Of a DNA stretch of 64,000 nt, positions 3,105 to 60,250 are shown piece after piece. A program made the translations under genes and the position numbers. The notes beneath the pieces are model-generated. The model ran no database searches. It was not told the origin of the DNA and saw only the letters and a program-made list of their open reading frames with translations. The stretch lies in IMG/VR virus record IMGVR_UViG_3300045988_131126; one strand, written 5' to 3'. The DNA is from a virus. Each line of letters opens with the position of its first letter. Position 1 is the stretch's first letter.

Positions 3105-3149
3105 CAGTATGAGATGGAGTAAAACCCGTCTCATACTGTTTTATTTTTT
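3105..3149 (+). terminator. rho-independent terminator
   Basis: cagtatgaga(t)...gtctcatactg stem followed by ttttatttttt. Confidence 0.75.
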
Positions 3150-3406: not shown

Positions 3407-5731
3407 ATGAACGAAATAGCATTAATGGAAGCAGCCTCTTCTGTATATAAAAGAAAATATCAATGCCCTTACTGTAACGAAAAATATGATAGAATTAAAC
3501 TTGTGGATCATATAGAAAAGAAACATTCGGAATTCATTCCAAAAGACTTTACTGCATCTAGAATAGTATTTAATACCGTAAATAAAAAAGAAAAAGGCAA
3601 ATGCACTATATGTGGAAAAGAATCTCCATGGGACGAAGATAAATGTAGATACGATAGATTTTGCAGTGATAAATGTAAAAAAGCTTACGAGCAACTAGCT
3701 GCAGAAAGATTAAAAAGGGTAAGAGGAATGACTAAGCAAGAAATGCTTAAAGATCCAGAATATCAAAATAATGTAATGCTTGCCAATAGAAGTATATCAG
3801 GAAAATATAAATTTCAAGATGGAACCATAAGAACTTATGTAGGTTCTTATGAGCATAAGTTTTTGGAATTTATGGATAAATTTTTAAATGTAAAAAGCGA
3901 GGACCTAGAAACTCCTGGGCCTATAATAGAATATAAGTTTAAAGGAGAAACTCATAAGTGGATTACTGATGCTTATTATGCTCCATATAACTTAGCATTT
4001 GATATTAAAGATGGCGGAGATAATCCAAATAAAAGAGAAATGCCTGAATATAGAGCTAAACAAATAGCAAAAGAAGATGCTATTAGAAAACAAGGTAAAT
4101 ATAATTATATAAGATTAACCGATAACAAGTTTGAGCAATTGATAGAATTAATGCTTGAATTAAAAGAATTATATATAGAGAATAATGGAGAATATAATCC
4201 TATTATAAGAATCAATGAATCTACTGTATTAGAAAGCAAGAAAGCCAAAGACTTAGGACCTAAAGTATGTAGTAAATGTGGATCTAAAAACATAGGAGTA
4301 TTTTTCCAAGGAGAACCTATCTACAAATGTAAAGATTGCGGAGAATATTTAGGAGTAGTACCATTTAACGAATCTGCTTCAAACGATATAATCCAAAATG
4401 CGTTTAATTCAGTAATTCATACTATTAAATGGTGCAGAATGGATGACTCTGCTTTTTGCAGTATAAATGAATATAACAAGCCAAAGATAATTAGCGATAA
4501 TTCATTCTCTGCTGGTAAATTTGCGTATGAATCTGGAATTGATGCTGTAGTAAAAACTATTAACTATAACAATATTTTCGAAAATGGAAAATATTCTGCA
4601 AGATGTGATAATAATGAATTAATTATCACGATTGATAAATTGAATAACATGAATGAATCATATATTATAGATGAAATATATAAAGGAGATAATAATATGA
4701 TTCGTGAAAATAAATCTACACTTGATCCAAATCATAAAACTAAAAAGACTGATACAACTTTTAAGTTTATAGATCTTAAAGATCCTAGCGTAGATAAATA
4801 TTTAAAACAAGACAAATATTGTACAGAGTATTGGGATTATATTCATAAAAGTTGCATAGGTGAAATAGTTATAGATGCTGATAGCGATTGTATAGCAGGA
4901 TATGTATTCTTAGATAATAAGAAATATCCGGGATTTATAACTCCGGTTGTAGTGATTAAGAAATATAGAGGATATGGATTATCTTCTAAGCTTGTAAAAG
5001 ATGCCATAAATAAATATAAGGCCATAGATTTAACTGTAACGAAAGATAACGAAGTTGCTATTAAATTATATAAAGATAACGGGTTCGTTATAATTGGAGA
5101 CGGTAATTCCAAAAATGAGTATTGGATGAAGCTCAAAAGCAAGCTTACTGATGAAGAGAAATCTAAATCACTAAAAGAATTTTCTATAATAACTCCATCA
5201 TCTGATAAACCTTCTCAAGAAGGATTTATTGGTCATGGATCTTGGAATGCTATTAAGAAAGTTAATGGAGAACCATATAGAGAGCGTGTAGAAGTAATTA
5301 TATTTAATAAGGAATTAGATAAAGTACTTATTGGTACTAGAAAATCTGATGGTAGTGTTAAACTACCTGGAGGTGGTACTGATAAGAATTCTTCATTAGA
5401 GTCTCAAGCTGCTAAAGAATGTCAAGAAGAAGTAAAGGTAAATATAGATAATCTTAAGTATATCGGAAGTTATTCTATGTCTAATGAACAGGCTAGGTAT
5501 AAGGATGATGTATATAAAGGACAATACACGTATCTATATTTAGCAATTTATGATTCTGATTATACTGGATATATTAGACCAGAAGATCTTGATTCTTTAT
5601 ATGATACAGCTGAATGGATGAGTATTTATGATGCTAAAAAATTATTAAAGAAGAGATCTGTAGATTTATACAACTTATTTAACTATAATTATAAATTATA
5701 TATTAATGATTTATCGTATTTAAAATTATAA
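3407..5731 (+). CDS. multidomain protein: Zn-finger / PD-(D/E)xK-like nuclease fold / Zn-ribbon / GNAT acetyltransferase / Nudix-like hydrolase
   Basis: 774 aa. Motifs seen: YQCPYCNEKY..HIEKKH and CTICGK..FCSDKCKKAY Cys clusters; WITDAYY..LAFDIKDGG (3958-4018) fits D..(D/E)xK; CSKC..CKDC (4268-4339); VVVIKKYRGYGLSSKLV (4946-4996) is GNAT motif-A-like; LPGGGTDKNSSLESQAAKECQEEVKV (5363-5440) is Nudix-box-like (KECQEE for REUxEE). Confidence 0.7.
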   Translation: MNEIALMEAASSVYKRKYQCPYCNEKYDRIKLVDHIEKKHSEFIPKDFTASRIVFNTVNKKEKGKCTICGKESPWDEDKCRYDRFCSDKCKKAYEQLAAERLKRVRGMTKQEMLKDPEYQNNVMLANRSISGKYKFQDGTIRTYVGSYEHKFLEFMDKFLNVKSEDLETPGPIIEYKFKGETHKWITDAYYAPYNLAFDIKDGGDNPNKREMPEYRAKQIAKEDAIRKQGKYNYIRLTDNKFEQLIELMLELKELYIENNGEYNPIIRINESTVLESKKAKDLGPKVCSKCGSKNIGVFFQGEPIYKCKDCGEYLGVVPFNESASNDIIQNAFNSVIHTIKWCRMDDSAFCSINEYNKPKIISDNSFSAGKFAYESGIDAVVKTINYNNIFENGKYSARCDNNELIITIDKLNNMNESYIIDEIYKGDNNMIRENKSTLDPNHKTKKTDTTFKFIDLKDPSVDKYLKQDKYCTEYWDYIHKSCIGEIVIDADSDCIAGYVFLDNKKYPGFITPVVVIKKYRGYGLSSKLVKDAINKYKAIDLTVTKDNEVAIKLYKDNGFVIIGDGNSKNEYWMKLKSKLTDEEKSKSLKEFSIITPSSDKPSQEGFIGHGSWNAIKKVNGEPYRERVEVIIFNKELDKVLIGTRKSDGSVKLPGGGTDKNSSLESQAAKECQEEVKVNIDNLKYIGSYSMSNEQARYKDDVYKGQYTYLYLAIYDSDYTGYIRPEDLDSLYDTAEWMSIYDAKKLLKKRSVDLYNLFNYNYKLYINDLSYLKL

Positions 5732-5736
5732 ATTGT

Positions 5737-5770
5737 AACCCCATAATCTGTATTGGATTATGGGGTTTCT
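5737..5770 (+). terminator. rho-independent terminator
   Basis: aaccccataatc...gattatggggtt stem followed by tct. Confidence 0.65.
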
Positions 5771-7063: not shown

Positions 7064-7105
7064 GAAACCCAGGTACTAATATTAGTACCTGGGTTTATTT
7101 TTTTT
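7064..7105 (+). terminator. rho-independent terminator
   Basis: aaacccaggtact-aatatt-agtacctgggttt (13-bp stem) followed by attttttttt. Confidence 0.8.
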
Positions 7106-11746: not shown

Positions 11747-11789
11747 CGGAATACTCCATATGGAGTATTCCGTAATATCTTTATTTTTT
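11747..11789 (+). terminator. rho-independent terminator
   Basis: cggaatactcca-ta-tggagtattccg stem followed by taatatctttatttttt. Confidence 0.75.
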
Positions 11790-11870
11790 GATCGTATACT
11801 ATCATATTGAAAAAATAAATAATAATATAAATCATACTTATTTAAATAAGTGTGTAGAAAGAGGTATGAT
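11772..11870 (+). promoter_or_regulatory. repeated promoter-leader module, copy A
   Basis: gtaatatctttatttttt, then TTGATC-N17-AAAAAT, then leader hairpin catactta/taagtgtg (11833-11854, one U.G pair), then tagaaagagg RBS, then ATG 11871. Confidence 0.5.
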
Positions 11871-18354: not shown

Positions 18355-18718
18355 TATGGTTATAGATGATAAGCCAGGACAGGCATTTTCTATGGTTTCA
18401 CCATACGGAGTTATGCCACACGATGTTTTGTGTAAACCACGTAAAAGAATAGAATATATTTTATCTCCTAAAAACTGTCCTGATGAGGGAATTATACCGT
18501 TACCGTTTTTACTTAAAATAAAAGATGAAGACAATTATTTAATATTTAAAGGTTTACAAACTGTAAAATTATCTAGCGAAGAATCTTATGATAAAATAAC
18601 AAATAAAAACATCATAAGATATATACTAAAAGAGCACATTGCTGCAGTATTTCGAGCAAGCTATAAAAATAATATCGATTTTTTAAAAGCACAAGAATAC
18701 GGAGAATTAACAGATTAA
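18332..18718 (+). CDS. hypothetical protein
   Basis: ATG 18332 lies 8 nt after AAGGAG. ATGs at 18284, 18308 and 18356 are alternatives. Overlaps the previous gene's end. Confidence 0.5.
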   Translation: MEKDSKNNMVIDDKPGQAFSMVSPYGVMPHDVLCKPRKRIEYILSPKNCPDEGIIPLPFLLKIKDEDNYLIFKGLQTVKLSSEESYDKITNKNIIRYILKEHIAAVFRASYKNNIDFLKAQEYGELTD

Positions 18719-18724
18719 AAAACG

Positions 18725-18757
18725 AGAAAGCTATCCAATGGATAGTTTTCTTTTTTC
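18725..18757 (+). terminator. rho-independent terminator
   Basis: gaaagctatcc-aat-ggatagttttc (contains a plus-strand G.U pair) followed by tttttt. Confidence 0.65.
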
Positions 18758-18765
18758 TACGATAC
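18751..18765 (+). repeat. exact 15-mer TTTTTTCTACGATAC, copy 1 of 4
   Basis: Identical 15-mers at 18751, 26467, 26849 and 33637, all plus strand, each just downstream of a gene's 3' end. This copy lies directly on the terminator T-tract. Confidence 0.8.
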
Positions 18766-18767
18766 GC

Positions 18768-18866
18768 GTAATATCTTTATTTTTTGATCATATAATATTA
18801 TAGTGATAATAATAAAAAATAATACATAAATCCTATATAATAAATATAGGTAGAAAGAGGAACAAT
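18768..18866 (+). promoter_or_regulatory. repeated promoter-leader module, copy B
   Basis: gtaatatctttatttttt, then TTGATC (18784-18789), N17 ending TGA, TAATAA (18807-18812), then leader hairpin cctatat/atatagg (18832-18850), then tagaaagagg, then ATG 18867. Confidence 0.55.
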
Positions 18867-19130: not shown

Positions 19131-19133
19131 ATT

Positions 19134-19171
19134 ATAAAGAGGTGTAAGGATTATACCTTACACCTCTTTAT
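19134..19171. terminator. bidirectional terminator between convergent genes
   Basis: ataaagaggtgtaagg-attata-ccttacacctctttat (16-bp perfect stem). Confidence 0.75.
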
Positions 19172-19194
19172 ACCCAAAACTATTTTATTTTTTA

Positions 19195-26107: not shown

Positions 26108-26455
26108 ATGATACAGGTATTTCCTAAAGATGAAAATGTAAATATGAATCTAGAAGTTCCTACATTTGTAAATACTAGGAAAAATGATTACATATTATCT
26201 AAGAAATATACTAAAGAAAAGGAGGGTCTTACAATGAAAAGACTCAATAAGAAAATCGAAACTATAAACAATATTATTCTGGCAGTTGCCATTGCCGGAA
26301 TAATATTCTGGCTCCTTGGAGATGGCCTTTTTGGTCATCTCGGAGGACTTATAGTTACTATTATAGTAACTATAAGCATTTCCTTATTGACAGTAAGGAA
26401 ACTTCAATTGAAGAATAAGAAACTTCAATTGAAGTTAATGAAAGCAAGACGATAA
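26108..26455 (+). CDS. small membrane protein (two predicted TM helices), holin-like topology
   Basis: ATG 26108 follows GGAGAGG. A stronger internal start at ATG 26234 follows AAGGAGGG. TM segments IILAVAIAGIIFWLLG and LGGLIVTIIVTISISLLTV. Charged C-terminus. Confidence 0.5.
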   Translation: MIQVFPKDENVNMNLEVPTFVNTRKNDYILSKKYTKEKEGLTMKRLNKKIETINNIILAVAIAGIIFWLLGDGLFGHLGGLIVTIIVTISISLLTVRKLQLKNKKLQLKLMKARR

Positions 26456-26472
26456 GTCTTGCTTTCTTTTTT
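26440..26472 (+). terminator. rho-independent terminator
   Basis: gaaagcaagac-gataa-gtcttgctttc followed by tttttt. The stem includes the stop codon. Confidence 0.75.
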
Positions 26473-26481
26473 CTACGATAC
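26467..26481 (+). repeat. exact 15-mer TTTTTTCTACGATAC, copy 2 of 4
   Basis: See 18751. Lies directly on the terminator T-tract. Confidence 0.8.
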
Positions 26482-26574
26482 TCGTAAAATCGTTTTTTTT
26501 TGAGTGTATATTATTATAGTGATAAATAATAATAAATCCTACTTTTAAAATAAGTAGGTAGAAAGAGGTATAAT
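26482..26574 (+). promoter_or_regulatory. repeated promoter-leader module, copy C
   Basis: TTGAGT, N17 ending TGA, TAAATA, then leader hairpin cctactt/aagtagg (26538-26558), then tagaaagagg, then ATG 26575. Confidence 0.5.
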
Positions 26575-26802
26575 ATGTGGAATTTATTTGGCATAGATGA
26601 TTTTTTAACAGACCAATTTTCTGAGGAGGCTTCTGCATTATTAGAAGACCCTCAGGAAGGGGATTTAGAAAAACTAAAAGATATTTTTAAGAAATATTCC
26701 TGCAACGCTATGTGGTGGGAGATAAAACCGGTGTATGACCGGTATTATTCTGAGATTGAATATAAGCTCAGAAAAATAAAAAATAAATTAGAAGAAAGCT
26801 AG
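26575..26802 (+). CDS. small acidic hypothetical protein (cassette cargo)
   Basis: 75 aa. Conserved RBS. Own promoter module and terminator. Confidence 0.6.
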   Translation: MWNLFGIDDFLTDQFSEEASALLEDPQEGDLEKLKDIFKKYSCNAMWWEIKPVYDRYYSEIEYKLRKIKNKLEES

Positions 26803-26819
26803 TAATGCTAGCTTTCTTC
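26791..26819 (+). terminator. terminator hairpin
   Basis: gaagaaagctag-taatg-ctagctttcttc (12-bp stem containing the stop codon). The T-tract is weak. Confidence 0.5.
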
Positions 26820-26854
26820 TAATTATACTAATTTACGTATACTCTTTATTTTTT
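26819..26854 (+). repeat. 36-bp direct repeat, copy 1 (ctaattatactaatttacgtatactctttatttttt)
   Basis: 34/36 identical to 27091-27126. The two copies bracket an ORF-free cassette. Confidence 0.8.
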
Positions 26855-26863
26855 CTACGATAC
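26849..26863 (+). repeat. exact 15-mer TTTTTTCTACGATAC, copy 3 of 4
   Basis: See 18751. About 30 nt downstream of the 26791-26819 terminator hairpin, on the T-tract that ends the 36-bp direct repeat. Confidence 0.8.
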
Positions 26864-26880
26864 TATGGCAAAATTGTATT

Positions 26881-26930
26881 TGTAATATCTTTATTTTTTA
26901 ATTATATATTATTATAGTGATAAGAATAGA
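26881..26930 (+). promoter_or_regulatory. repeated promoter box, copy D (no RBS or ORF downstream)
   Basis: tgtaatatctttatttttt, then TTAATT, N17 ending TGA, TAAGAA. Same architecture as copies B and E, but followed by hairpins instead of the tagaaagagg RBS. Confidence 0.45.
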
Positions 26931-27090
26931 AAATCTATATCTTATCCGGTAGTATGTCCGAAACATACATAAAAGGAAAGAGCACTTCATAGTGCTCATT
27001 ATATTACTTTACTTTATTAAGGCGGGCTTAGGTTGCGATCTTTTTGGTCGTAACCTAGGCTCAAAATCAAATAATAATATTTTATTTTTT
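26931..27090 (+). ncRNA. candidate small RNA expressed from promoter box D
   Basis: No ORF or RBS. Three hairpins: 26952-26968, 26980-26997, and a 14-bp stem at 27026-27060 with three G.U pairs that pair only in the plus-strand transcript. Ends in ttttatttttt (27080-27090). Confidence 0.3.
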
Positions 27091-27126
27091 CTAATTATAC
27101 CAATTTACATATACTCTTTATTTTTT
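27091..27126 (+). repeat. 36-bp direct repeat, copy 2
   Basis: ctaattataccaatttacatatactctttatttttt. See 26819. Confidence 0.8.
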
Positions 27127-27169
27127 GTCTAAAACAACACTGTAATATTGATTGAGGAGATGATGTAAA

Positions 27170-33134: not shown

Positions 33135-33179
33135 CCATATACTCTATATATAAGAGTATATGGAATATCTTTATTTTTT
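33135..33179 (+). terminator. rho-independent terminator
   Basis: ccatatactct-atatata-agagtatatgg followed by aatatctttatttttt. Confidence 0.7.
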
Positions 33180-33257
33180 AATTATATAATATTATAGTGA
33201 TAATAATAAAAAATAAATAAATCCTACGTTAAACTCGTAGGTAGAAAGAAGGAAATT
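33164..33257 (+). promoter_or_regulatory. repeated promoter-leader module, copy E
   Basis: aatatctttatttttt, then TTAATT, N17 ending TGA, TAATAA, then leader hairpin cctacg/cgtagg (33223-33241), then tagaaagaagg, then ATG 33258. Confidence 0.55.
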
Positions 33258-37394: not shown

Positions 37395-37407
37395 TAAAAA
37401 AATAAAT

Positions 37408-37441
37408 ATATGGATGTATACCAAATGGTATACATCCATAT
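37408..37441. terminator. bidirectional terminator between convergent genes
   Basis: atatggatgtatacc-aaat-ggtatacatccatat (15-bp perfect stem), flanked by A-run and T-run. Confidence 0.75.
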
Positions 37442-37446
37442 TTCTT

Positions 37447-40601: not shown

Positions 40602-42539
40602 TTATTTTATTTTCTTTAAATATGGTTTAAAATCTTTAGACTTATCAGAATCTCTTATAATAGGTCTAAATGTATTTTCTGGATCATGATAAATTGGATT
40701 ATAAAATCCACTTTCTATATCAGGATAATGATAAATTGGATTATAAAATCCATCACTATTTATATCAAGCATTGGATTTATTGGGAACCTTACTTTAGTA
40801 AAGAATTCATCAAAATCTTCCATCATCTCTCTTATAGATGCTAAATGGAACCAACGTTTACCAACTTCAAGGTAGTTTCCGTTATTAAAGTCCATAAGGA
40901 ATCTACCACCTCTATAATAAAATTCATATCTAAATGGATTTTCATTTTCATATACTTGTGTAGGTATTTCTAATCTACCAACTTGAGTATTTGGAGCCAT
41001 ATTATTTTCTCTTGCAATACTTGGATACAGAGACTTATAATCAAAATCTACTAGATTATCCATAATATTTAAAATCTCTCCATTTTGCTTTAATTTAGAA
41101 TAATCGCTATTATGCTTAGGATTACCTACTAAAGCTCCAGGGAACTTAACGTTACTATTATTTCTATTAACGTTATTACCAATAATAAATCCCTGATTAT
41201 AGAATTCTTTTGCTCCTCTATTTGTAAGATAAACAGTCTGTCTGTGACCTTTATCATATCTTGTATTATTCATTACACACTTACCAAAGATATAATCTAT
41301 ATCACCGGTTTTAACTTCAATACATTTCTGAACAATTGTATCGACGATATTATAGAATACAAATGTCTTATAATCTAAATATGGTAATTTAGAGATATCA
41401 TGTGTAATATGAGAATAATCTAATTTATTTACACCTGCTATAACTTCACCGATATCATCCAATTTAAATGATTTAAATGCTGACTGACCTTTACGTCTTG
41501 AAGCAAATTGAATCATTTGGTCCAATAATACTGTATACATAGAAAACGTATATCTATCGCATCTCTCTGCATATTCATTTCTATGTCTTTCATCTATATA
41601 ATACTTAGCAACTTTCTTTTCAAAAGCTGGATGAGACATGATCTCTGCTGGATCATATCCTAAGTTAATTATTCTCTCATATATATACGGAATATCGAAT
41701 GCCATGTTCCATGCCAATAAGAAGTCTGGTTCATATTTATTAATAAATTGAAATAATGAATATATTAATTGGATCTCTTCATCAAAGAATGCAAGACGTA
41801 CATCCAAATTATCTACTCCATATTTTTTTGCTTTTTCTGGTCCACCTACAGTTGTTATTAAAAACTCTCTTAATTCTTTAAATAAATTTGGATCGGTTTT
41901 TGCTTCATGTTCAAATTTTTCTATTAACGGATTATTTGGGTTTCTTAATAAAAATACTTTTACAAGATTTTCTTGTTCTATTATACATGATACTGCATTT
42001 ATAGGACACTCTCCCATCTCTGGAAAGTCTCCTTTCATATCTATAGTATCAGCCTCAATATCGAAGAATGCCTTCGTTACAGGACAAATATCATTTTTAT
42101 AATATAAATCAAACATGAATTTATATCTGTCTTCTATATTAGAATCACTAAATAATATATTAGGTAATTCGTGTAATAATTGATTATTTCTAAATTGACC
42201 AGTTCTTAAATTCTCATAAAAGAATTCTTCGTTACCTGTATTCTCAGCAATAGATTTTAATAAATCTCTATATTTACAAGTAATCTTATCTACTTTCTCT
42301 TTCTCTACAATAAACAAATTATGATCTGTTGTATATTCAGGTTTTAATTTATAATAATCGAAATCTGGCTTCATAATATACCTATGACCTTTTTTACCAG
42401 TTTCTAAATCTTTATATATCATAAGCATATAATCTGGATCATATTTTCCATCCTCTCTCTTTTGAGGATAATGATATCTATTATCTAATAAAGTAATATT
42501 ACTATTAAAAGGATATCCTTTAATTAATTCATCGCTCAT
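40602..42539 (-). CDS. family-B DNA polymerase, N-terminal fragment (3'-5' exonuclease + palm motif A)
   Basis: 645 aa. ExoI FFDIEAD, ExoII LLAWNMAFDIPYI, ExoIII YNIVDTIV, motif A VDFDYKSLYPSI (about 41021-41048). Ends in a tail with two GFYNPIYH copies (40686-40700 and 40728-40742). Confidence 0.85.
   Translation of the reverse strand: MSDELIKGYPFNSNITLLDNRYHYPQKREDGKYDPDYMLMIYKDLETGKKGHRYIMKPDFDYYKLKPEYTTDHNLFIVEKEKVDKITCKYRDLLKSIAENTGNEEFFYENLRTGQFRNNQLLHELPNILFSDSNIEDRYKFMFDLYYKNDICPVTKAFFDIEADTIDMKGDFPEMGECPINAVSCIIEQENLVKVFLLRNPNNPLIEKFEHEAKTDPNLFKELREFLITTVGGPEKAKKYGVDNLDVRLAFFDEEIQLIYSLFQFINKYEPDFLLAWNMAFDIPYIYERIINLGYDPAEIMSHPAFEKKVAKYYIDERHRNEYAERCDRYTFSMYTVLLDQMIQFASRRKGQSAFKSFKLDDIGEVIAGVNKLDYSHITHDISKLPYLDYKTFVFYNIVDTIVQKCIEVKTGDIDYIFGKCVMNNTRYDKGHRQTVYLTNRGAKEFYNQGFIIGNNVNRNNSNVKFPGALVGNPKHNSDYSKLKQNGEILNIMDNLVDFDYKSLYPSIARENNMAPNTQVGRLEIPTQVYENENPFRYEFYYRGGRFLMDFNNGNYLEVGKRWFHLASIREMMEDFDEFFTKVRFPINPMLDINSDGFYNPIYHYPDIESGFYNPIYHDPENTFRPIIRDSDKSKDFKPYLKKIK
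40686..40752 (-). repeat. in-frame tandem duplication (25-nt exact repeat, 42-nt period) encoding GFYNPIYH twice
   Basis: atgataaattggattataaaatcca at 40686-40710 and 40728-40752, identical. Confidence 0.9.
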
Positions 42540-42674
42540 TTTTTATTATCAACCTTTCTAATCGTATGTAATTTGATACAATTATGTATTACTATATAGT
42601 TTTCAGACTAGTATAATTTCAATATATTCACATTATGGTAAGAATGCATAATTTGCTTAGTGAAAGGAGATACT

Positions 42675-43649
42675 ATGGATTTAATATATCACGATTACTC
42701 ATCCGATTCATATAACCCATCTGAAAACCAACCTGTAGTAGCAGGAGTTAAAGATGAAGATATAGGAATAGATTTTTCTAAAATAGGTCAGGATGATTCT
42801 CTTGTTATTTCTTCTCCTGTTGGAATTTCAGAAGAAAAGCCGAAAAGAAAACGAAGAACTGGCGACCCTAATAAAGTAGTAAAAGTTTCTGAGAGTAAAT
42901 CTTCTTCTAATAACAATGGTTTAGAACCATTTGAGAAGAAATATGAAGAAACTAATAGTATGCTTAAAGAAGTAATTGCACAAACCAATATGAGTATGGC
43001 TGATATCAACGAAGATATCAGATTACTTCGTAATTCTAAAACCGTTAGAAATAAATATACTTATTTAAGTAATTTAACAGATGCTTCTGCATCAATGCTT
43101 AGCAATAAACTTAATGCTATTAAGGAAATGAATAACTCTATTACAAAGGCACAAGACTTTGAAATGAAACGAGCTAAAGAGCTTCATCTAAACGATAATG
43201 TAGATGATGATAAAGCTATTCAAGATATGTATAAAGCTTTCGTAACTGCATCAGTTCCTAATCCTTATGCAGCACTTGGACCAACATCCAGAGATATGAC
43301 TGTACGTAATGATGCTATTATAGCAGGTACAATACCTAATAATACTATGGATGATGTTGCTGCTTATAATAATTATGTTCAAAATATGACTCCTCAGCAA
43401 CATATGATTGCATTGGAGAATGATCCTAATGTACAGCAAGTTGTAGTTTGGAACAAATCTACAGGAGCTAAATCATTCGAAATTATGAATATGGCTACTG
43501 GAGAGATTCTTCAGAATGTAGATAAACATGATATTATGTTTATGGAAGATACTACTATAGATGAAAGAAATCATACAGCTAGAAATATCAAACTGAATGA
43601 ATCATATCCTCTTGTAGTAATCGGAGAATCTGCTATCGATGAATATTAA
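42675..43649 (+). CDS. hypothetical protein
   Basis: ATG 42675 after AAAGGAG (the track's GTG 42660 overlaps the RBS). 324 aa. The N-terminus MDLIYHDYSSDSYNP resembles FPIYHDYTSYNPIYH of the RNAP beta fragment. Confidence 0.7.
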   Translation: MDLIYHDYSSDSYNPSENQPVVAGVKDEDIGIDFSKIGQDDSLVISSPVGISEEKPKRKRRTGDPNKVVKVSESKSSSNNNGLEPFEKKYEETNSMLKEVIAQTNMSMADINEDIRLLRNSKTVRNKYTYLSNLTDASASMLSNKLNAIKEMNNSITKAQDFEMKRAKELHLNDNVDDDKAIQDMYKAFVTASVPNPYAALGPTSRDMTVRNDAIIAGTIPNNTMDDVAAYNNYVQNMTPQQHMIALENDPNVQQVVVWNKSTGAKSFEIMNMATGEILQNVDKHDIMFMEDTTIDERNHTARNIKLNESYPLVVIGESAIDEY

Positions 43650-43660
43650 CTATATATTAA

Positions 43661-43715
43661 ATACAAGATTGTCTCATTGGTCCTGCTGCTGAAATGAAAC
43701 CATCTTGTATTTTTC
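43661..43715 (+). terminator. rho-independent terminator (long bulged hairpin)
   Basis: atacaagat...atcttgtat outer stem, tcatt/aatga inner stem, then tttt. Confidence 0.6.
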
Positions 43716-43940
43716 ACTCGAAGCTGTTTTACTGGCTTGAATTCTGGTGTGGATGAACACCTCCTCCGAAAAATTGTAACGATGGTACTTGGTAGCCTCA
43801 TGCAACTCTGTCTTGCATGGGGTTGCTAAGTTGTTTTAAATAGTTATAACAATTTCATAATTAGACAGGGATGCCTAATTATGTATTTTGTATTTTTCAT
43901 AAAGTTTTTTCCTTTTTTTGTTTTTTTGAGTAGTTACGGA

Positions 43941-43986
43941 GAAATAATAGATAGTGAATATTCGCTATCTATTATTTTCTGTTTTT
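43941..43986 (+). terminator. terminator-like hairpin with no ORF upstream
   Basis: gaaataatagatag...ctatctattattttc (14 bp, one bulge) followed by tgttttt. Confidence 0.5.
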
Positions 43987-44403
43987 AAATAACAAGTATA
44001 ACATTAAATTAAATATAGAAGTTGCCACTCTATATTTACGTAAAGCCTTTCCATGTGTGGTTTATGAATGGTATTTATGTGTGCGTAATAGTTTTGTTTT
44101 TCCACCTAGACATACTTAATAGTATGTCTAGGCCCTCGCATCTATAAAAATAAAATATATTTTTGAATAAATATCCTGTATGATCGAATTGATCATACAG
44201 GATATATTTTGTCAATAGTAAGGGGCTATTGACATAGATCAAGACCGGATAGGATAACTCCTATCCTGCGTTACAATAAAAATAAATAAGAAGGAGTTAT
44301 ACTTCGTAAAGAGAAAAACTAGCAGAATGTTACACGAAGGGATGTTTTAAAACTTTTTACTACTAGTCTTCTCTTTACTCAGATGTATAATATACTATCA
44401 TTT

Positions 44404-47088
44404 TTAATATTGGAAGATTACGTGTCCTGGACCTTCATAATTAGAATTTAATGATACTATATCTACATTAGACAACTCTGATTCTGATGAATGAGATATC
44501 ATTAAACATTGGGATATATTCATAGCCATCATCATTCTATTTATAGTAGGAATAAATGATGCTCTATTACCTTCATCTAATGGCGAATCTACTTCATCTA
44601 ATCTTATAATATTGCATTTTCCTGATCCTTGCATTGATAAAGCTAACGATATAATCATACTTATCATAGATCTTTGAGCCGATGAGCAACTCTTAATATC
44701 ATCATTGATAATGCTAGACGACAATGATTTTACTGGTATTCTGAATTCATTTTCATTGATAATATAATCCATTAATACTAAATCACCATCAAAGAGCATA
44801 GATAATAATTCATTTGCTATCTTTAATGTCTTACCCATATATAGCTCCATATACAATGTCTGTATACCTTTAGATGGAGAACTATATTTTCTAACCATTT
44901 CAACCTTCTCATATTTTAAATTTAATAATTCTAATTCTTTTTGATACTGATCGAGCATTTTGAGAGAGAACTTGATTTCTTCTTGTTCTTTCTGTGCCGG
45001 TTCAAGCTCAGAATTAAAATTATTTATAGATGATTGAATTTTATTTATATTATCCAAACAGATTCTAATAGATTCTATATCTTTAGATAGCACACTACCA
45101 TTATTACTAAGAGTATTAATCTTATCACAGACCATACCATATTCGTCATATCTCCTATTTAATTCTTCTAAGTTATTTAATTGAGTACTCTTAGATACAA
45201 ATTCTTTTGATAAATAATCTATATCTTTATTATTTTCATCTATCTTGATATTATAATCATTTAATTTCTCAGAAAGGCTCTTTATATCAGAATTTAATTC
45301 GTTTATAAGATCTATCTTATCTTTAAGAGCATCCAATTTAGTTAACAATATATCGATTTCTGTCTGATTATTCTTATATAATTCCATCTGATTTACTATT
45401 TCGAGATTATTCATGACAGATTCTGTAGCTTTATTTAAATCGAATTCACTTATAAGATACTTCATTACGTTATTATTATCAAGAATAAATGAAGCACCTA
45501 TCTGCGTAAATATTTCTTTATTAGATTCTATTGATCTTAATATTACATTTAATCTATTAATAATATCAAGATCGTCTTCAAGTTCTACTATAGTATCAGA
45601 ATATATGGTAAGATCCATCTGAGAATCAAATAATTCTTTCCCTAAAGATTCTTTTTTCTTTAGAGGATCTCTTTTCTGAGCTTCTACTGCTGATTTAATA
45701 AACGGGCAACTATCATCGTTACATCCAGACGGACGTTTATCCAGAGATTTCATTAGCTCTATATCATTATCGCATAAAGATATATTATATTTCAACTCTC
45801 TGATTTTATCCTCAGATGCTAATTTGTTTAATCTGGTTTCTTTTAATATATCAATGATATTTTTACCATTAGATACTATATCATATATATATTTAAGATT
45901 TTCCATAAAAGCTTGCTCTTTTATTCTATTGATATCTTCTATAATAAGATTCAATGTGTTCATACCGGCAGCAAACTCTGTTACAGATATATTTATATTA
46001 AAATTATCCGGAATGAATTTCTTTATTTCCTCATTCTTCTTTATTAAAGAATCTAATTTATTCTGTAATATAGATAAATTACCATCAGCAGTTAAAGTAC
46101 TTAATTTTATCTTCTTAGCTTTTAACTGCTCGTCATCTTTACTTAAATAAGAAAGCATTATCTCATTCTCTTTACGTAAATCATTAATATCCATTTCTAT
46201 ATTAGTAATATTACTTTTTAAAGAATTGATATTCTTTAATAATTCCTCCCTATCTTTATAATCGTATCTATTAATAATAAGCTCAAGATTTTTCTTTTCC
46301 GCAGATAAAGATTGAATCTGAATAACTATATTATTATATTTCTCTTGTATAGAACCATCAGGATCCAATACTTTAACAGATGCTTCATTATCTGAAAGAG
46401 ATTTTGAGTATTTTTCTTTCTCTATAGTAAGATACTTAATTCTTTCTTCCAATGCAACCAATCTGTTTTTCAATTCTTCTTCATTACCAATAGCACTTAT
46501 CTTAGAGGCCGCACTATTTATCAATGATTTAAATGCAGAAGCTCTTTTACTCAAAGTTTTATAGATATTATTATAAACTTCTACAGATTCAAGGATAGCA
46601 GTTACAAATCTTTTTCTTTCATTTGGACTTTTAGATACAATACCTCTATCATCCATAGATAATTTTGTTAAAGACACATAATTAGGATCTAATCCGAACA
46701 GATTGTATATAGTGTCTTTGTATGAAGTAATATTACCATTACTATTTAATTCTTCTGTATCCCCTCCTGGATTTATTTTAGTAATAAACCCTTTTATTAC
46801 AGATCTAGTACCGTCGTATTTTACAGGATGCACTATTCTTAAATTATATATTACATCATTATCAATATATGATATTTCTTTAACCCCTTCTTTTCCATCT
46901 ACCATACTACTATTACTATCCGGTAATGGACTCGAAGCGTCCAATATAGTAGTTTTTCCTGATCCATTAGGACCAATAATCAACACAATACTAGAAATGC
47001 ATTTACTGAAATCTATACAGATTTCATCTAATCCACTGGCTCTTTTTATACCAGCATAATTTTTCATATATAAGCGTAATAGTTTCAT
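44404..47088 (-). CDS. SbcC/Rad50-like recombination ATPase (T4 gp46-like)
   Basis: 894 aa. Walker A IIGPNGSGKTTILDA (about 46950-46976). Long coiled-coil middle with a central Cys pair PSGCNDDSCPF (45701-45732), a possible zinc hook. Signature-like SSAQRSMIS. Walker B NIIRLDEVDSPLD. Confidence 0.8.
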   Translation of the reverse strand: MKLLRLYMKNYAGIKRASGLDEICIDFSKCISSIVLIIGPNGSGKTTILDASSPLPDSNSSMVDGKEGVKEISYIDNDVIYNLRIVHPVKYDGTRSVIKGFITKINPGGDTEELNSNGNITSYKDTIYNLFGLDPNYVSLTKLSMDDRGIVSKSPNERKRFVTAILESVEVYNNIYKTLSKRASAFKSLINSAASKISAIGNEEELKNRLVALEERIKYLTIEKEKYSKSLSDNEASVKVLDPDGSIQEKYNNIVIQIQSLSAEKKNLELIINRYDYKDREELLKNINSLKSNITNIEMDINDLRKENEIMLSYLSKDDEQLKAKKIKLSTLTADGNLSILQNKLDSLIKKNEEIKKFIPDNFNINISVTEFAAGMNTLNLIIEDINRIKEQAFMENLKYIYDIVSNGKNIIDILKETRLNKLASEDKIRELKYNISLCDNDIELMKSLDKRPSGCNDDSCPFIKSAVEAQKRDPLKKKESLGKELFDSQMDLTIYSDTIVELEDDLDIINRLNVILRSIESNKEIFTQIGASFILDNNNVMKYLISEFDLNKATESVMNNLEIVNQMELYKNNQTEIDILLTKLDALKDKIDLINELNSDIKSLSEKLNDYNIKIDENNKDIDYLSKEFVSKSTQLNNLEELNRRYDEYGMVCDKINTLSNNGSVLSKDIESIRICLDNINKIQSSINNFNSELEPAQKEQEEIKFSLKMLDQYQKELELLNLKYEKVEMVRKYSSPSKGIQTLYMELYMGKTLKIANELLSMLFDGDLVLMDYIINENEFRIPVKSLSSSIINDDIKSCSSAQRSMISMIISLALSMQGSGKCNIIRLDEVDSPLDEGNRASFIPTINRMMMAMNISQCLMISHSSESELSNVDIVSLNSNYEGPGHVIFQY

Positions 47089-48480: not shown

Positions 48481-48782
48481 AGTGTTTTCTCCTTTTCTTT
48501 TAGTGCTTTGCATACTTCTATGAAATCTTCCATTTTTGAAATTTTCATTGGTACCGGAACACATCCAGTCCAATCTATTTTAAATATTTCTTTGCATTTA
48601 TTGCATTTGAAATATCTAAAACTTCTGTTTTTAAGTTTACTTGTGTCATGAGTACTTAAAAGCATTTGATAATTAAAAGGTCTATTGTAATTATCAAACA
48701 ATTCAAGACTGTCCAAAGCATTACACTTTGGACAGCTCTCGTGATGATCATGATATATCAAGGGTCGTAATGTCTTCGTCAT
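48477..48782 (-). CDS. small zinc-ribbon protein
   Basis: 101 aa. CPKC..(45 aa)..CNKC. The N-terminus MTKTLRPLIYHDHHES carries the motif (48747-48764). Confidence 0.6.
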   Translation of the reverse strand: MTKTLRPLIYHDHHESCPKCNALDSLELFDNYNRPFNYQMLLSTHDTSKLKNRSFRYFKCNKCKEIFKIDWTGCVPVPMKISKMEDFIEVCKALKEKEKTL

Positions 48783-49491
48783 TTTCTATATCCTCTTCAT
48801 CAAATAAGATTTGTTCATATCCTAAACAGTCTCCTATAGTTGTAATTTCATTGTAATCGAATAATGATGTATACCAAACATTATTTTTACAATGTTCTTT
48901 TATATATCTGACAAACTGTTTTAAAGGCTCATACTCACGAATATGTTCTGGTAATTTAGAAATAGGTGTCAGCATTGCTGGAATGTAGAAACAACTAAGA
49001 TTATATGCTCTTTCTGCATAATTATCTATTTCACTCATTCCATCAATTAAACCTAATGCTGATAAACTATACATATATTCATTGGTAAGTACCTCGTATA
49101 CTTTAGTAATCAATGCAAATTCTCCACTGTATAATTCACCAGTAAATAAAATTGTGTAACAATCATCTCCGTATTTAACAGTGCATACTGACAGGAATAA
49201 AGATCCTGCAACGGCTTTCTGGTCATCTGTTAAATCGCTACTTTTAGAAGCTACTTCAACAAATTTATCGACAGATTCTTCATTAAGTTCGCATATAATG
49301 CAATGTACATGCTTATCTTCTACTTTTGTAATTCTACCGATATTAGATACTTTAATACCTCCTGCTGATAAGCACGCTACAGATACAGCTTTTGATAACT
49401 GATCATCTGCAAGTACTTCAATTGTTTCCTTCGGGTTTGGTTCATGCTGAATTAATTGGTTTAATGTTTCTGCTACTTTTGTGTAAATCAT
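48748..49491 (-). CDS. hypothetical protein (acidic C-terminus)
   Basis: ATG 49491 after CAGGAGG. ATGA overlap with the upstream stop. 247 aa. Confidence 0.65.
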   Translation of the reverse strand: MIYTKVAETLNQLIQHEPNPKETIEVLADDQLSKAVSVACLSAGGIKVSNIGRITKVEDKHVHCIICELNEESVDKFVEVASKSSDLTDDQKAVAGSLFLSVCTVKYGDDCYTILFTGELYSGEFALITKVYEVLTNEYMYSLSALGLIDGMSEIDNYAERAYNLSCFYIPAMLTPISKLPEHIREYEPLKQFVRYIKEHCKNNVWYTSLFDYNEITTIGDCLGYEQILFDEEDIENDEDITTLDIS

Positions 49492-60156: not shown

Positions 60157-60201
60157 CTCGCACAACCTCCTTAAATTCATTTTTATTGAAATAGCTATAT
60201 T

Positions 60202-60238
60202 AAATCATAGGTATAATATATGATTATACCTATGATTT
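60202..60238. terminator. 16-bp perfect hairpin between the recA-like and RNAP genes
   Basis: aaatcataggtataat-atatg-attatacctatgattt. The T-run is on the plus side only (accctttttatttt), so its role as a minus-strand terminator is uncertain. Confidence 0.35.
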
Positions 60239-60250
60239 ACCCTTTTTATT

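Follow-up and report, generated by a model that had tools for sequence, protein, structure and literature searches.

A candidate island of short non-coding RNA genes in an intergenic gap of an uncultured AR9-related jumbo phage

The C-rich small RNAs (sRNAs) of low-GC Gram-positive bacteria, such as RsaE/RoxS, RNAIII and LhrC1-5, act by base pairing and block translation initiation, with unpaired UCCC or CUCCC motifs in loops, linkers and terminator loops binding Shine-Dalgarno (SD) sequences (PMC2790875, PMC4132741). In this work, we describe a 754-bp gap, positions 43650-44403 of a 64,000-nucleotide stretch from the IMG/VR virus record IMGVR_UViG_3300045988_131126 (the whole stretch is referred to below as the window), which may encode RNAs of a comparable kind. 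The units predicted in the gap share the architecture of RsaE/RoxS, RNAIII and LhrC, with a hairpin at the 5' end, a terminator of the Rho-independent type and multiple unpaired C-rich motifs, and both occur against an A/T-rich background in which ribosome-binding sites are of the strong GGAGG type. LhrC is multicopy and exposes CUCCC in loop A, in a single-stranded stretch and in the terminator loop; in the predicted minus-strand unit of the gap, termed RNA2, UCUCCCU, CCCC and CUCCUU are distributed over the hairpins H7 and H6, the apex of H8 and a linker. The predicted gap RNAs differ from the C-rich sRNAs in having no sequence or Rfam homology to them, in residing in a virulent-type jumbo phage rather than a bacterium, with predicted promoters of the AR9-type phage RNA polymerases, and in forming several unrelated units, head to tail and convergent, within one island. 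At most, the island would work like the C-rich sRNA class, and it falls outside the described families.

Two enterobacterial sRNAs, DapZ and MicL, derive from 3' untranslated regions (3' UTRs) with an internal promoter and depend on Hfq. RNA2 would resemble them in setting out 10 nt past the stop codon of an SbcC-like gene and in having its terminator in common with the SbcC mRNA, and another predicted unit, RNA1, may be the tail of the mRNA of a 329-aa protein. The predicted promoter of RNA2, in contrast, is of the phage virion-RNA-polymerase type. For phage AR9, promoters were mapped by differential RNA sequencing (dRNA-seq), and the passages of that study drawn on here give the early motif as AAATATATATTAT-(6N)-G+1 and the late motif as AACA-(6N)-TA/G, the last base being the start, together with strong terminators at operon ends (PMC5312081). 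The core early and late motifs recur in the window, where they are nearly restricted to intergenic DNA and conserved before homologous genes. In the same passages, the AR9 signals are reported before protein genes or as antisense promoters, and the word 'noncoding' does not occur in those that were searched (PMC5312081). In phiKZ, dRNA-seq predicted one 75-nt sRNA that a northern blot did not confirm (PMC8244752). It is similar in being a candidate regulatory RNA in the intergenic DNA of a jumbo phage; phiKZ, however, belongs to another phage lineage with a host of another phylum, and its single candidate came from RNA-seq, whereas the present multi-unit island is drawn from comparative structure and promoter motifs. 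To our knowledge, the regulatory RNAs of virulent phages, and of jumbo phages especially, are almost unexplored. What we propose as new is the occurrence of phage-borne units of the C-rich type, several of them in one conserved island with AR9-type promoter motifs.

The ORF-free gap and its predicted RNA units

We read the gap as a cluster of short non-coding RNA genes, three or four in number, carried by an AR9-related jumbo phage, and put the probability of this reading at about 0.5. The source is an uncultured jumbo myophage, distant kin of AR9/PBS1. Among the genes of the window are a tail sheath, a split family-B DNA polymerase (PolB), an SbcC-like ATPase and an SNF2 helicase, and its PolB and SbcC share 27-33% identity with their counterparts in Bacillus phage AR9/PBS1 and in Staphylococcus jumbo phages. 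One near-identical relative contig carries a human gut label. The gap lies between two convergent genes, on the left that of the 329-aa protein (42660-43649, plus strand) and on the right the SbcC-like gene (44404-47088, minus strand). The 329-aa protein has no Pfam or PHROG match and no homolog among cultured phages; its 109 database homologs range in identity from 98% to about 33%, and metagenomic contigs of 212-261 kb carry them. The DNA of 43000-45000 has no similarity to any deposited phage record. The relatives compared below are those of group A (L001, L048, L053 and L054, which are 95-99.9% identical to the window), group B (L003), group C (L004/L005, L011, L057 and the partial L014), group D (L006/L007 and L012) and group E (L009 and L010), with L059 and L060 more distant.

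The ORF list bears out the claim of the first-pass annotation that the gap is free of open reading frames (ORFs) of at least 60 aa on both strands. It is the longest such stretch in the window, the runner-up measuring merely 367 bp; two further apparent large gaps (18355-18866 and 48574-49487) were artefacts of greedy ORF picking and are both coding. Stop-codon reassignment was considered by translating all six frames and marking each type of stop. Since TAA occurs in all frames, besides TAG and TGA, and read-through of TAG or TGA opens none of them, no recoded gene is hidden here. The gap had also been called a G+C-enriched island. This holds for its leftmost ~190 bp (39.3% at 43650-43840) and in comparison with other ORF-free DNA (25.6%), but not for the gap overall (30.9%, against 29.7% for the window), and the segment 43841-43980 has only 23.6%. 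Among known RNAs, the window has no match to an Rfam family at its gathering score, relaxed E-values returned only chance-level matches to eukaryotic small nucleolar RNAs and microRNAs, and ARAGORN detected no tRNA or tmRNA in the whole window.

It could be argued that the gap consists of unannotated protein genes shorter than 60 aa. There are ORFs of 30-55 codons, among them a 55-aa minus-strand frame (44075-44242) and a 35-aa plus-strand frame (43881-43988). Longer frames without a stop occur in individual lineages, one of 109 plus-strand codons in L057 and one of 101 minus-strand codons in L003, each shared with no other lineage. However, no such frame is kept between lineage groups, the 55-aa frame ends after 10 codons in L003, and the minus-strand GGAGGAGG lacks a suitably spaced start codon in every lineage. 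Cross-group peptide matches are confined to one conserved DNA block and occur there in two frames simultaneously, which is the signature of nucleotide-level conservation. With no small ORF, and hence no short protein gene, conserved in the gap across the lineage groups, we consider this explanation extremely unlikely.

The features on which the predicted units are built are as follows.

43648-43659, plus strand: AACT-N6-TA motif, weak candidate promoter of RNA1, overlapping the stop of the 329-aa gene; relatives carry AACTATATAGTAA
43659-43712, plus strand: T1 hairpin, 20-nt arms that are 90% complementary, T-run after it
43757-43771, plus strand: C-rich, anti-SD-like block gAACACCUCCUCCGa, mostly unpaired, with ACACCUCCUCC at 43760-43770
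43787-43831, plus strand: H2 hairpin, 19 pairs, 4 of them plus-only G.U, T-rich tail to 43840
43848-43859, plus strand: late-type promoter motif AACAATTTCATAA, AACA-ATTTCA-TAA, predicted start ~A43859
43856-43883, plus strand: hairpin of 12 pairs with one mismatch, T-run after it
43942-43977, plus strand: hairpin of 16 pairs, T-run after it
44000-44011, plus strand: late-type promoter motif AACATTAAATTAA, AACA-TTAAAT-TAA, predicted start ~A44011
44010-44038, plus strand: hairpin of 10 pairs (extra find)
44105-44132, plus strand: H4 hairpin, 12 perfect pairs
44171-44205, both strands: H5 hairpin, 15 perfect pairs, T-rich tails on either strand
44210-44234, minus strand: H6 hairpin, 9 pairs, minus-strand loop CCCCUUA
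44233-44246, minus strand: predicted RNA2 linker GGUCUUGAUCUAUG, 14 nt, single-stranded, nearly invariant in groups A-D
44247-44266, minus strand: H7 hairpin, 8 pairs, loop UCUCCCU(A) in groups B-D
44268-44305, minus strand: predicted RNA2 linker with AACUCCUUCUUAUUU, unpaired in the predicted fold; CUCCUU or AUCCUU kept in groups A-C
44306-44378, minus strand: H8 long stem-loop (extra find), basal stem 44306-44315 with 44369-44378, C-rich apex CAUCCCUUC
44394-44380, minus strand: P_R, AR9 early-type promoter motif, TATATTAT (44394-44387), ACATCT and G+1 at 44380

All eight hairpins of the first-pass annotation were located at, or a few bases off, their given positions, including the plus-only G.U pairs at 43787-43831 and the T-runs after 43856-43883 and 43942-43977, and two extra ones bring the number to ten. 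The annotation had missed that the first hairpin, T1, doubles as the terminator of the upstream 329-aa gene. The 754 nt fold with -219.6 kcal/mol on the plus and -207.5 kcal/mol on the minus strand, as compared with -149 and -127 kcal/mol for dinucleotide shuffles (z = -8.7 and -9.3, respectively). The folds of the proposed units, again relative to shuffles, have z values of -8.6 (RNA2), -5.0 (RNA1), -7.2 (RNA3) and -3.7 (RNAx). A scan for terminator-like sites over 42400-45000 returned 5 against 0.8 expected, and T1, H2, 43942-43977 and H5 (with tails on both strands) have the stem-loop and U-run of an intrinsic terminator. The remaining H4, H6, H7, H8 and 44010-44038 are not explained by termination, since no T-run adjoins them. 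A strong hairpin follows nearly every gene of this genome, and the oddity of the gap is that ten of them stand uninterrupted by genes.

From left to right, the first proposed unit is RNA1 on the plus strand, from ~43659 (or 43713) to 43840, which would include ACACCUCCUCC and end at H2 with its T-rich tail. It may be a transcript of its own, with T1 as its 5' hairpin if the 43648 motif fires, or the 3' UTR of the 329-aa gene. RNAx (plus strand, ~43859-43988) would be a hypervariable unit composed of the hairpin 43856-43883, a T-rich spacer, the hairpin 43942-43977 and a T-run. RNA3 (plus strand, ~44011-44212) would begin with the hairpin 44010-44038 and continue with a C/U- and G/U-rich middle, H4, the A-rich block AAAAAUAAAAUA and the terminator H5 with its U-run; L003 has the same architecture. 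RNA2, on the minus strand from 44380 to ~44165, would comprise H8, a linker, H7, GGUCUUGAUCUAUG, H6 and the terminator H5 in this order and would fire from an early promoter of the virion-RNA-polymerase type. Because this promoter lies just past the SbcC stop, RNA2 would at the same time be the SbcC 3' UTR. H5 would then serve as a bidirectional terminator where RNA3 and RNA2 converge. The shorter gaps of groups C and D are probably due to a single unit where the window and L003 have two.

The starts of these units are predicted from the AR9-type motifs, of which the early one belongs to the virion and the late one to the non-virion RNA polymerase. TATATTAT-N6-G occurs 15 times in the window, and 11 of the 15 copies lie within the ORF-free 7.5% (p = 4e-10). 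Most copies precede a gene and are oriented toward it, and octamers without the G at that position are nearly all intragenic. For AACA-N6-TAA, eight of nine copies lie in the ORF-free DNA (p = 8e-9), among them one upstream of the tail sheath gene and one, kept in five lineages, upstream of a virion protein gene. Inside the gap there are three motif copies with no gene downstream, one early on the minus strand and two late on the plus strand; these sites agree with the AR9 early and late motifs, and we regard them as predicted promoters. P_R lies 10 nt past the SbcC stop codon, and its octamer and +1 G are kept in all group A-D lineages despite a changing N6 spacer. A late-like motif after H2 is found in every lineage, in the forms AACC TATAAG TAA, [CT]ACA TAAAAG TAA and AACA CATAAG TAA. 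In L003, the motif AACAAAATAGTAA stands immediately 5' of the homologous TAAATATAG hairpin. At the left end, TAACTATATAGTAA at 43648-43659 is invariant across lineages, and a 13-mer identical to this motif is located upstream of the minus-strand PolB gene at 42601; its role as a promoter is uncertain, since the AACT-N6-T[AG] class is not enriched in intergenic DNA. An early promoter at TAACTATATATTAA, past the 329-aa stop, was rejected, for the +1 G is not conserved in relatives, and the site is retained merely as a weak late-type variant.

Conservation and covariation among relatives

An ORF-free gap of 252-754 bp is found between the same two convergent genes in all fetched lineages except L008, which has lost the SbcC neighbour; the relatives examined in which both neighbours are retained number eight. 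Its length is 737 bp in L003, 617 bp in L004/L005, 601 bp in L011, 596 bp in L057, 529 bp in L006/L007 and 531 bp in L012, and in the distant groups 252-279 bp (L009/L010), 266 bp (L059) and 552 bp (L060). The identity of the flanks is 48-73% in five lineages with the gap and as low as 32% in the remotest relatives. In group A, 43650-43836 has 2 variable sites and 43981-44403 about 6 mutational events, both below the flanking genes. The 144 bp between them, 43837-43980, have ~27 variable positions among these 95-99.9% identical relatives, a hotspot flanked by very conserved DNA, and the differences consist of T-run length changes and of stem changes that preserve pairing in two hairpins.

From group to group, the hairpins keep their positions and are made of different sequences. 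At the T1 position, a hairpin of differing sequence occupies the same spot in every lineage. With hand-defined helix arms, H5, H6 and H7 are 100% paired inside each lineage, and arms swapped between groups pair only to 49%, 55% and 43%, respectively. H2 is a consensus helix in RNAalifold with compensatory changes in 4 of 10 pairs. The basal stem of H8 covaries as well, for example AAAGAGAAG/CUUCUCUUU against AAAGGGAAG/CUUCCCUUU. For the right part, RNAalifold gave no consensus structure on a MAFFT alignment that was out of register, and its helices were therefore assessed with the hand-defined arms and with a covariance model. Built from the H7-H6-H5 core of the window alone, the model detected the syntenic minus-strand copy in six other lineages (E-values of 3e-8 in L003, 3e-6 in L057, 1e-3 in L012, L004 and L011, and 0.07 in L006) and no paralog inside the window. 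The alignment of relatives suggested in the first-pass annotation thus finds the gap conserved in position and its hairpins maintained by compensatory changes. Wider scans of IMG/VR added little to this picture. The right-end motif recovered near-identical relatives and probable chance matches only, and the pattern of anti-SD block plus hairpin returned 28 loci on varied, apparently unrelated contigs, which were not used.

The same data bear on whether the gap is a degraded mobile element or a set of decayed genes, as the annotation had suggested as an alternative. In favour of this are the six small protein genes that lie in the SbcC-PolB interval of AR9 and the fast evolution of the middle segment 43837-43980. 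The gap nevertheless remains syntenic and conserved in deeply diverged relatives down to 32% flank identity, its left and right zones are more constrained than the neighbouring genes, no terminal repeats of length were found, and there is no DNA-level similarity to any phage record. Decay can hardly be the explanation.

A second alternative of the annotation was a replication origin, to which a packaging site or a cruciform protein-binding region may be added as other elements acting at the DNA level. The position between convergent genes and beside the replication and repair genes PolB and SbcC, the A/T-rich block at 44140-44170 and the ability of the palindromes to fold equally on either strand would all suit such an element. 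In addition, near-identical relatives differ by an exact inversion of the loop in two perfect hairpins, TAAT against ATTA at 44117-44120 and GAATT against AATTC at 44186-44190 in H5, which points to a hairpin-mediated flip-flop in the phage DNA, by template switching or recombination, and so to palindromes that are active in these processes. An origin, however, would be expected to show more than the short two-copy direct repeats found here, with neither iterons nor repeated boxes among them, and the cumulative GC skew peaks at ~37-38 kb and tracks gene orientation, with no separate turn at the gap. The stems change freely and the linkers and loop motifs are conserved, a pattern that is RNA-like and not that of a sequence-specific DNA site, and 3-4 G.U pairs are tolerated in H2. 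A DNA-level element is in our view improbable.

The main rival to the RNA cluster is that the signals of the gap are cis punctuation only between two convergent transcription units, with long structured 3' UTRs, stacked terminators, insulators and stability hairpins, incidental or vestigial promoter motifs and no trans-acting RNA. The strong hairpins that trail nearly all genes of the genome fit this explanation, as do T1 and H5, which with their T-runs serve as terminators of the flanking genes. Between the SbcC stop and H5, groups A-D lack a separate terminator for this gene, and group E has one right after the stop. The fast turnover of content, with gap lengths of 252-754 bp, and strand signals that are weak apart from the promoter motifs also fit. 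Yet one or two hairpins would suffice to terminate, and ten are kept, including the non-terminators H4, H6, H7 and H8 with their covariation. Nor would punctuation alone account for an invariant 14-nt single-stranded linker, for C-rich motifs conserved specifically in loops, for three highly specific promoter motifs that face into the gap with +1 bases conserved among lineages, or for left and right zones that vary less than the flanking coding sequence. On balance, we consider punctuation alone rather unlikely, although it has a real claim on part of the structure.

Strand use, C-rich motifs and a possible function

The first-pass annotation had suggested plus-strand non-coding RNAs ending at terminator-like hairpins. 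For the left and middle parts this remains plausible, with H2 and ACACCUCCUCC conserved with compensation, G.U pairs on the plus strand and two plus-strand late motifs, but the right third more likely belongs to the minus strand. In H2, plus-only G.U pairs number 4 in the window, 3 in L003, 1 in L057 and 1 in L014, against one A.C (L011), and this supports the use of H2 on the plus strand. In the right part, the assignment of RNA2 to the minus strand is based on the orientation of the early promoter, the full order from promoter to terminator and the strand bias of the C-rich motifs. Three broader versions of the G.U versus A.C strand count were insignificant and were not counted as evidence for RNA2. 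Individual changes are in line with the minus strand: 44212 T>C in H6 of L001 yields U.G on this strand only, H5 of L003 has two minus-only G.U pairs, and the basal pair of H8, read on the minus strand, varies between G-C (window), G.U (L003) and A-U (group C).

The C-rich motifs are the feature that relates the island to known sRNAs. The motif gaacacctcctccg at 43757-43770, which the annotation had noted as complementary to GGAGG-type ribosome-binding sites, was confirmed, and all related lineages keep its core; groups A, B and C share an identical ACACCTCCTCC, and group D reads ATACCTCCTTAAT. Read on the minus strand, the block is followed by no suitably placed start codon, and no ORF is conserved there. 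The loop of H6 keeps CCC or CCCC across groups A-C. Unpaired C-rich motifs were found as CCCC in H6, UCUCCCU in H7 (groups B-D), CUCCUU in the linker, CAUCCCUUC at the H8 apex and ACACCUCCUCC in RNA1. Clusters of the type CTCC/TCCC/CCCC/CCTC/TCCT are placed in predicted loops and linkers; in the right part 5 lie on the plus and 32 on the minus strand, and in the left part 39 on the plus and 22 on the minus strand (Fisher p = 9e-7 over seven lineages).

The right part could also be read on the plus strand, its G-rich loops then acting as a sponge or decoy for a CsrA-type GGA-binding protein or for the anti-SD end of 16S rRNA. In every lineage, H6, H7, the H8 apex and the linker (44210-44378, plus strand) indeed display GGGG, AGGGA(GA) or AAGGA(G), and in group C the plus fold is slightly more stable. 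Such a transcript, however, would find no plus-strand promoter motif between H5 and H6 and no terminator past H8, and would need to read through H5 and then run antisense into SbcC. Besides, the conserved promoter site on the plus strand is the variant octamer TATAATAT with A instead of G at +1 in all lineages, whereas the minus strand offers the complete order of promoter, 5' stem, loops and terminator. We therefore hold a plus-strand sponge to be very improbable and return to RNA2 as a minus-strand unit.

If the units are RNAs, each would combine a 5' hairpin and a terminator of the Rho-independent type with loops and linkers in which several CCUCC, CUCCC or CCCC motifs are left unpaired. 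Strong ribosome-binding sites of the AAGGAGG type serve the genes of this phage, and it is from these sites together with the C-rich sRNA signature that we propose translational repression: the C-rich motifs would pair with GGAGG-type ribosome-binding sites and thereby block translation initiation. The targets could be host mRNAs during takeover, in the case of the early RNA2, or early phage mRNAs in a temporal switch, in the case of the units with late promoters. Our confidence in this anti-SD mechanism is lower than that in the RNA cluster.

AR9-like phages have two RNA polymerases of their own, yet they rely on host ribosomes. Phage RNAs with several anti-SD motifs would be a plausible lever on translation during takeover. 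In its widest form, which is tentative and on the whole doubtful, the proposal is that a gut clade of AR9-like phages keeps a conserved, rapidly diversifying sRNA island, from which one RNA is made by the injected virion RNA polymerase and the others by the late polymerase, with anti-SD loops acting globally. If true, it would mean an RNA-based early shut-off of host translation and a late silencing of early phage messages, in a phage group known to import its own transcription machinery. The locus yields concrete predictions, namely starts at 44380 (minus strand) and at 43859 and 44011 (plus strand) and ends at the named hairpins. The AR9 early and late motifs also transfer to uncultured gut relatives, which makes transcription units, including non-coding ones, annotatable in metagenomic genomes. 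Even if the RNAs are not made, the gap is still a clear case of structure-level conservation in phage intergenic DNA.

Evidence against the cluster and further observations

Several results weigh against a cluster of RNA genes. The transcription, ends and strand of all units are predictions, and both strands of the gap fold about equally well. Post-gene hairpins are usual in this genome, so that some of the structure is ordinary termination. Over all helices the G.U bias is not significant (14 versus 8 in the left part, 2 versus 4 in the right). As to the strand bias of the C-rich clusters, its Fisher p over seven lineages is overstated because these lineages are related. RNA1 has only a weak plus-strand promoter candidate of the AACT type, with a predicted start right at the foot of a terminator-like hairpin. 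What the island contains changes from lineage to lineage, and in more distant relatives the covariance model does not detect the RNA2 core, though a hairpin-rich gap is kept. AR9 itself has no analogous island. Its interval between SbcC (g139) and the DNA polymerase (g132) (L058, KU878088 107408-120083) contains six small protein genes, all in one orientation, and an early promoter that is annotated there, so that the surroundings of SbcC are arranged differently in AR9 and in the phage of the window.

The target predictions count in the same direction. Duplexes with 54 ribosome-binding sites of the window reach -22 kcal/mol at best, with a median of -11 kcal/mol, and are non-specific, since any strong ribosome-binding site pairs. 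The linker GGUCUUGAUCUAUG has neither a second copy nor a complement elsewhere in the 64-kb window, and no specific complement of the anti-SD block was found in it; the search covered these 64 kb, about one quarter of the phage genome.

Hairpins of 12-17 bp, often perfect, stand right after the stops of nearly all genes or operons of the window, for example at 3105-3138, 5735-5769, 7065-7096, 19133-19172, 37406-37443 and 60201-60239. Several of these post-stop palindromes, such as 60201-60239, also include a promoter octamer. A cassette of at least 64 nt, GTAATATCTTTATTTTTT..TATA[AT]TATTATAGTGATAA.., is found in five copies (11766-11829, 18762-18825, 26478-26541, 26876-26939 and 33156-33219). 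It includes the early-promoter octamer, is mostly followed by a leader, in which a small hairpin and a ribosome-binding site occur, before small genes of 75-106 aa, and looks like a duplicated promoter-leader module. One copy falls in the second longest ORF-free stretch of the window, 26803-27169 (367 bp), where TATATTAT-N6-G is found at 26905 and a late motif at 27133. Some 230 nt separate this early promoter from the next gene, the adjoining 26270-26824 is likewise dense in hairpins, and the stretch may be a further non-coding unit.

Some observations concern the flanking genes and the relatives. The 329-aa ORF probably starts at ATG 42675 and not at GTG 42660, since AAAGGAGA lies at normal spacing 5' of the former and a 98%-identical homolog has 324 aa. 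L059 (JAQUZN010000001.1, 246 kb), deposited as a 'Candidatus Izemoplasmatales' metagenome-assembled genome (MAG), encodes homologs of both the 329-aa and the SbcC proteins and may be a complete phage genome of this group. L060 (CALXAO010000156.1), a contig of a 'Clostridia' MAG, has the same synteny, and its 552-bp gap contains many G+C-rich hairpins. The two MAG labels are a weak hint to a Bacillota host and were not used as evidence. Elsewhere in the window, a 774-aa protein (3407-5731) combines an endonuclease-like N-terminus that has a zinc-finger match with a GNAT acetyltransferase and a NUDIX hydrolase, an unusual fusion.

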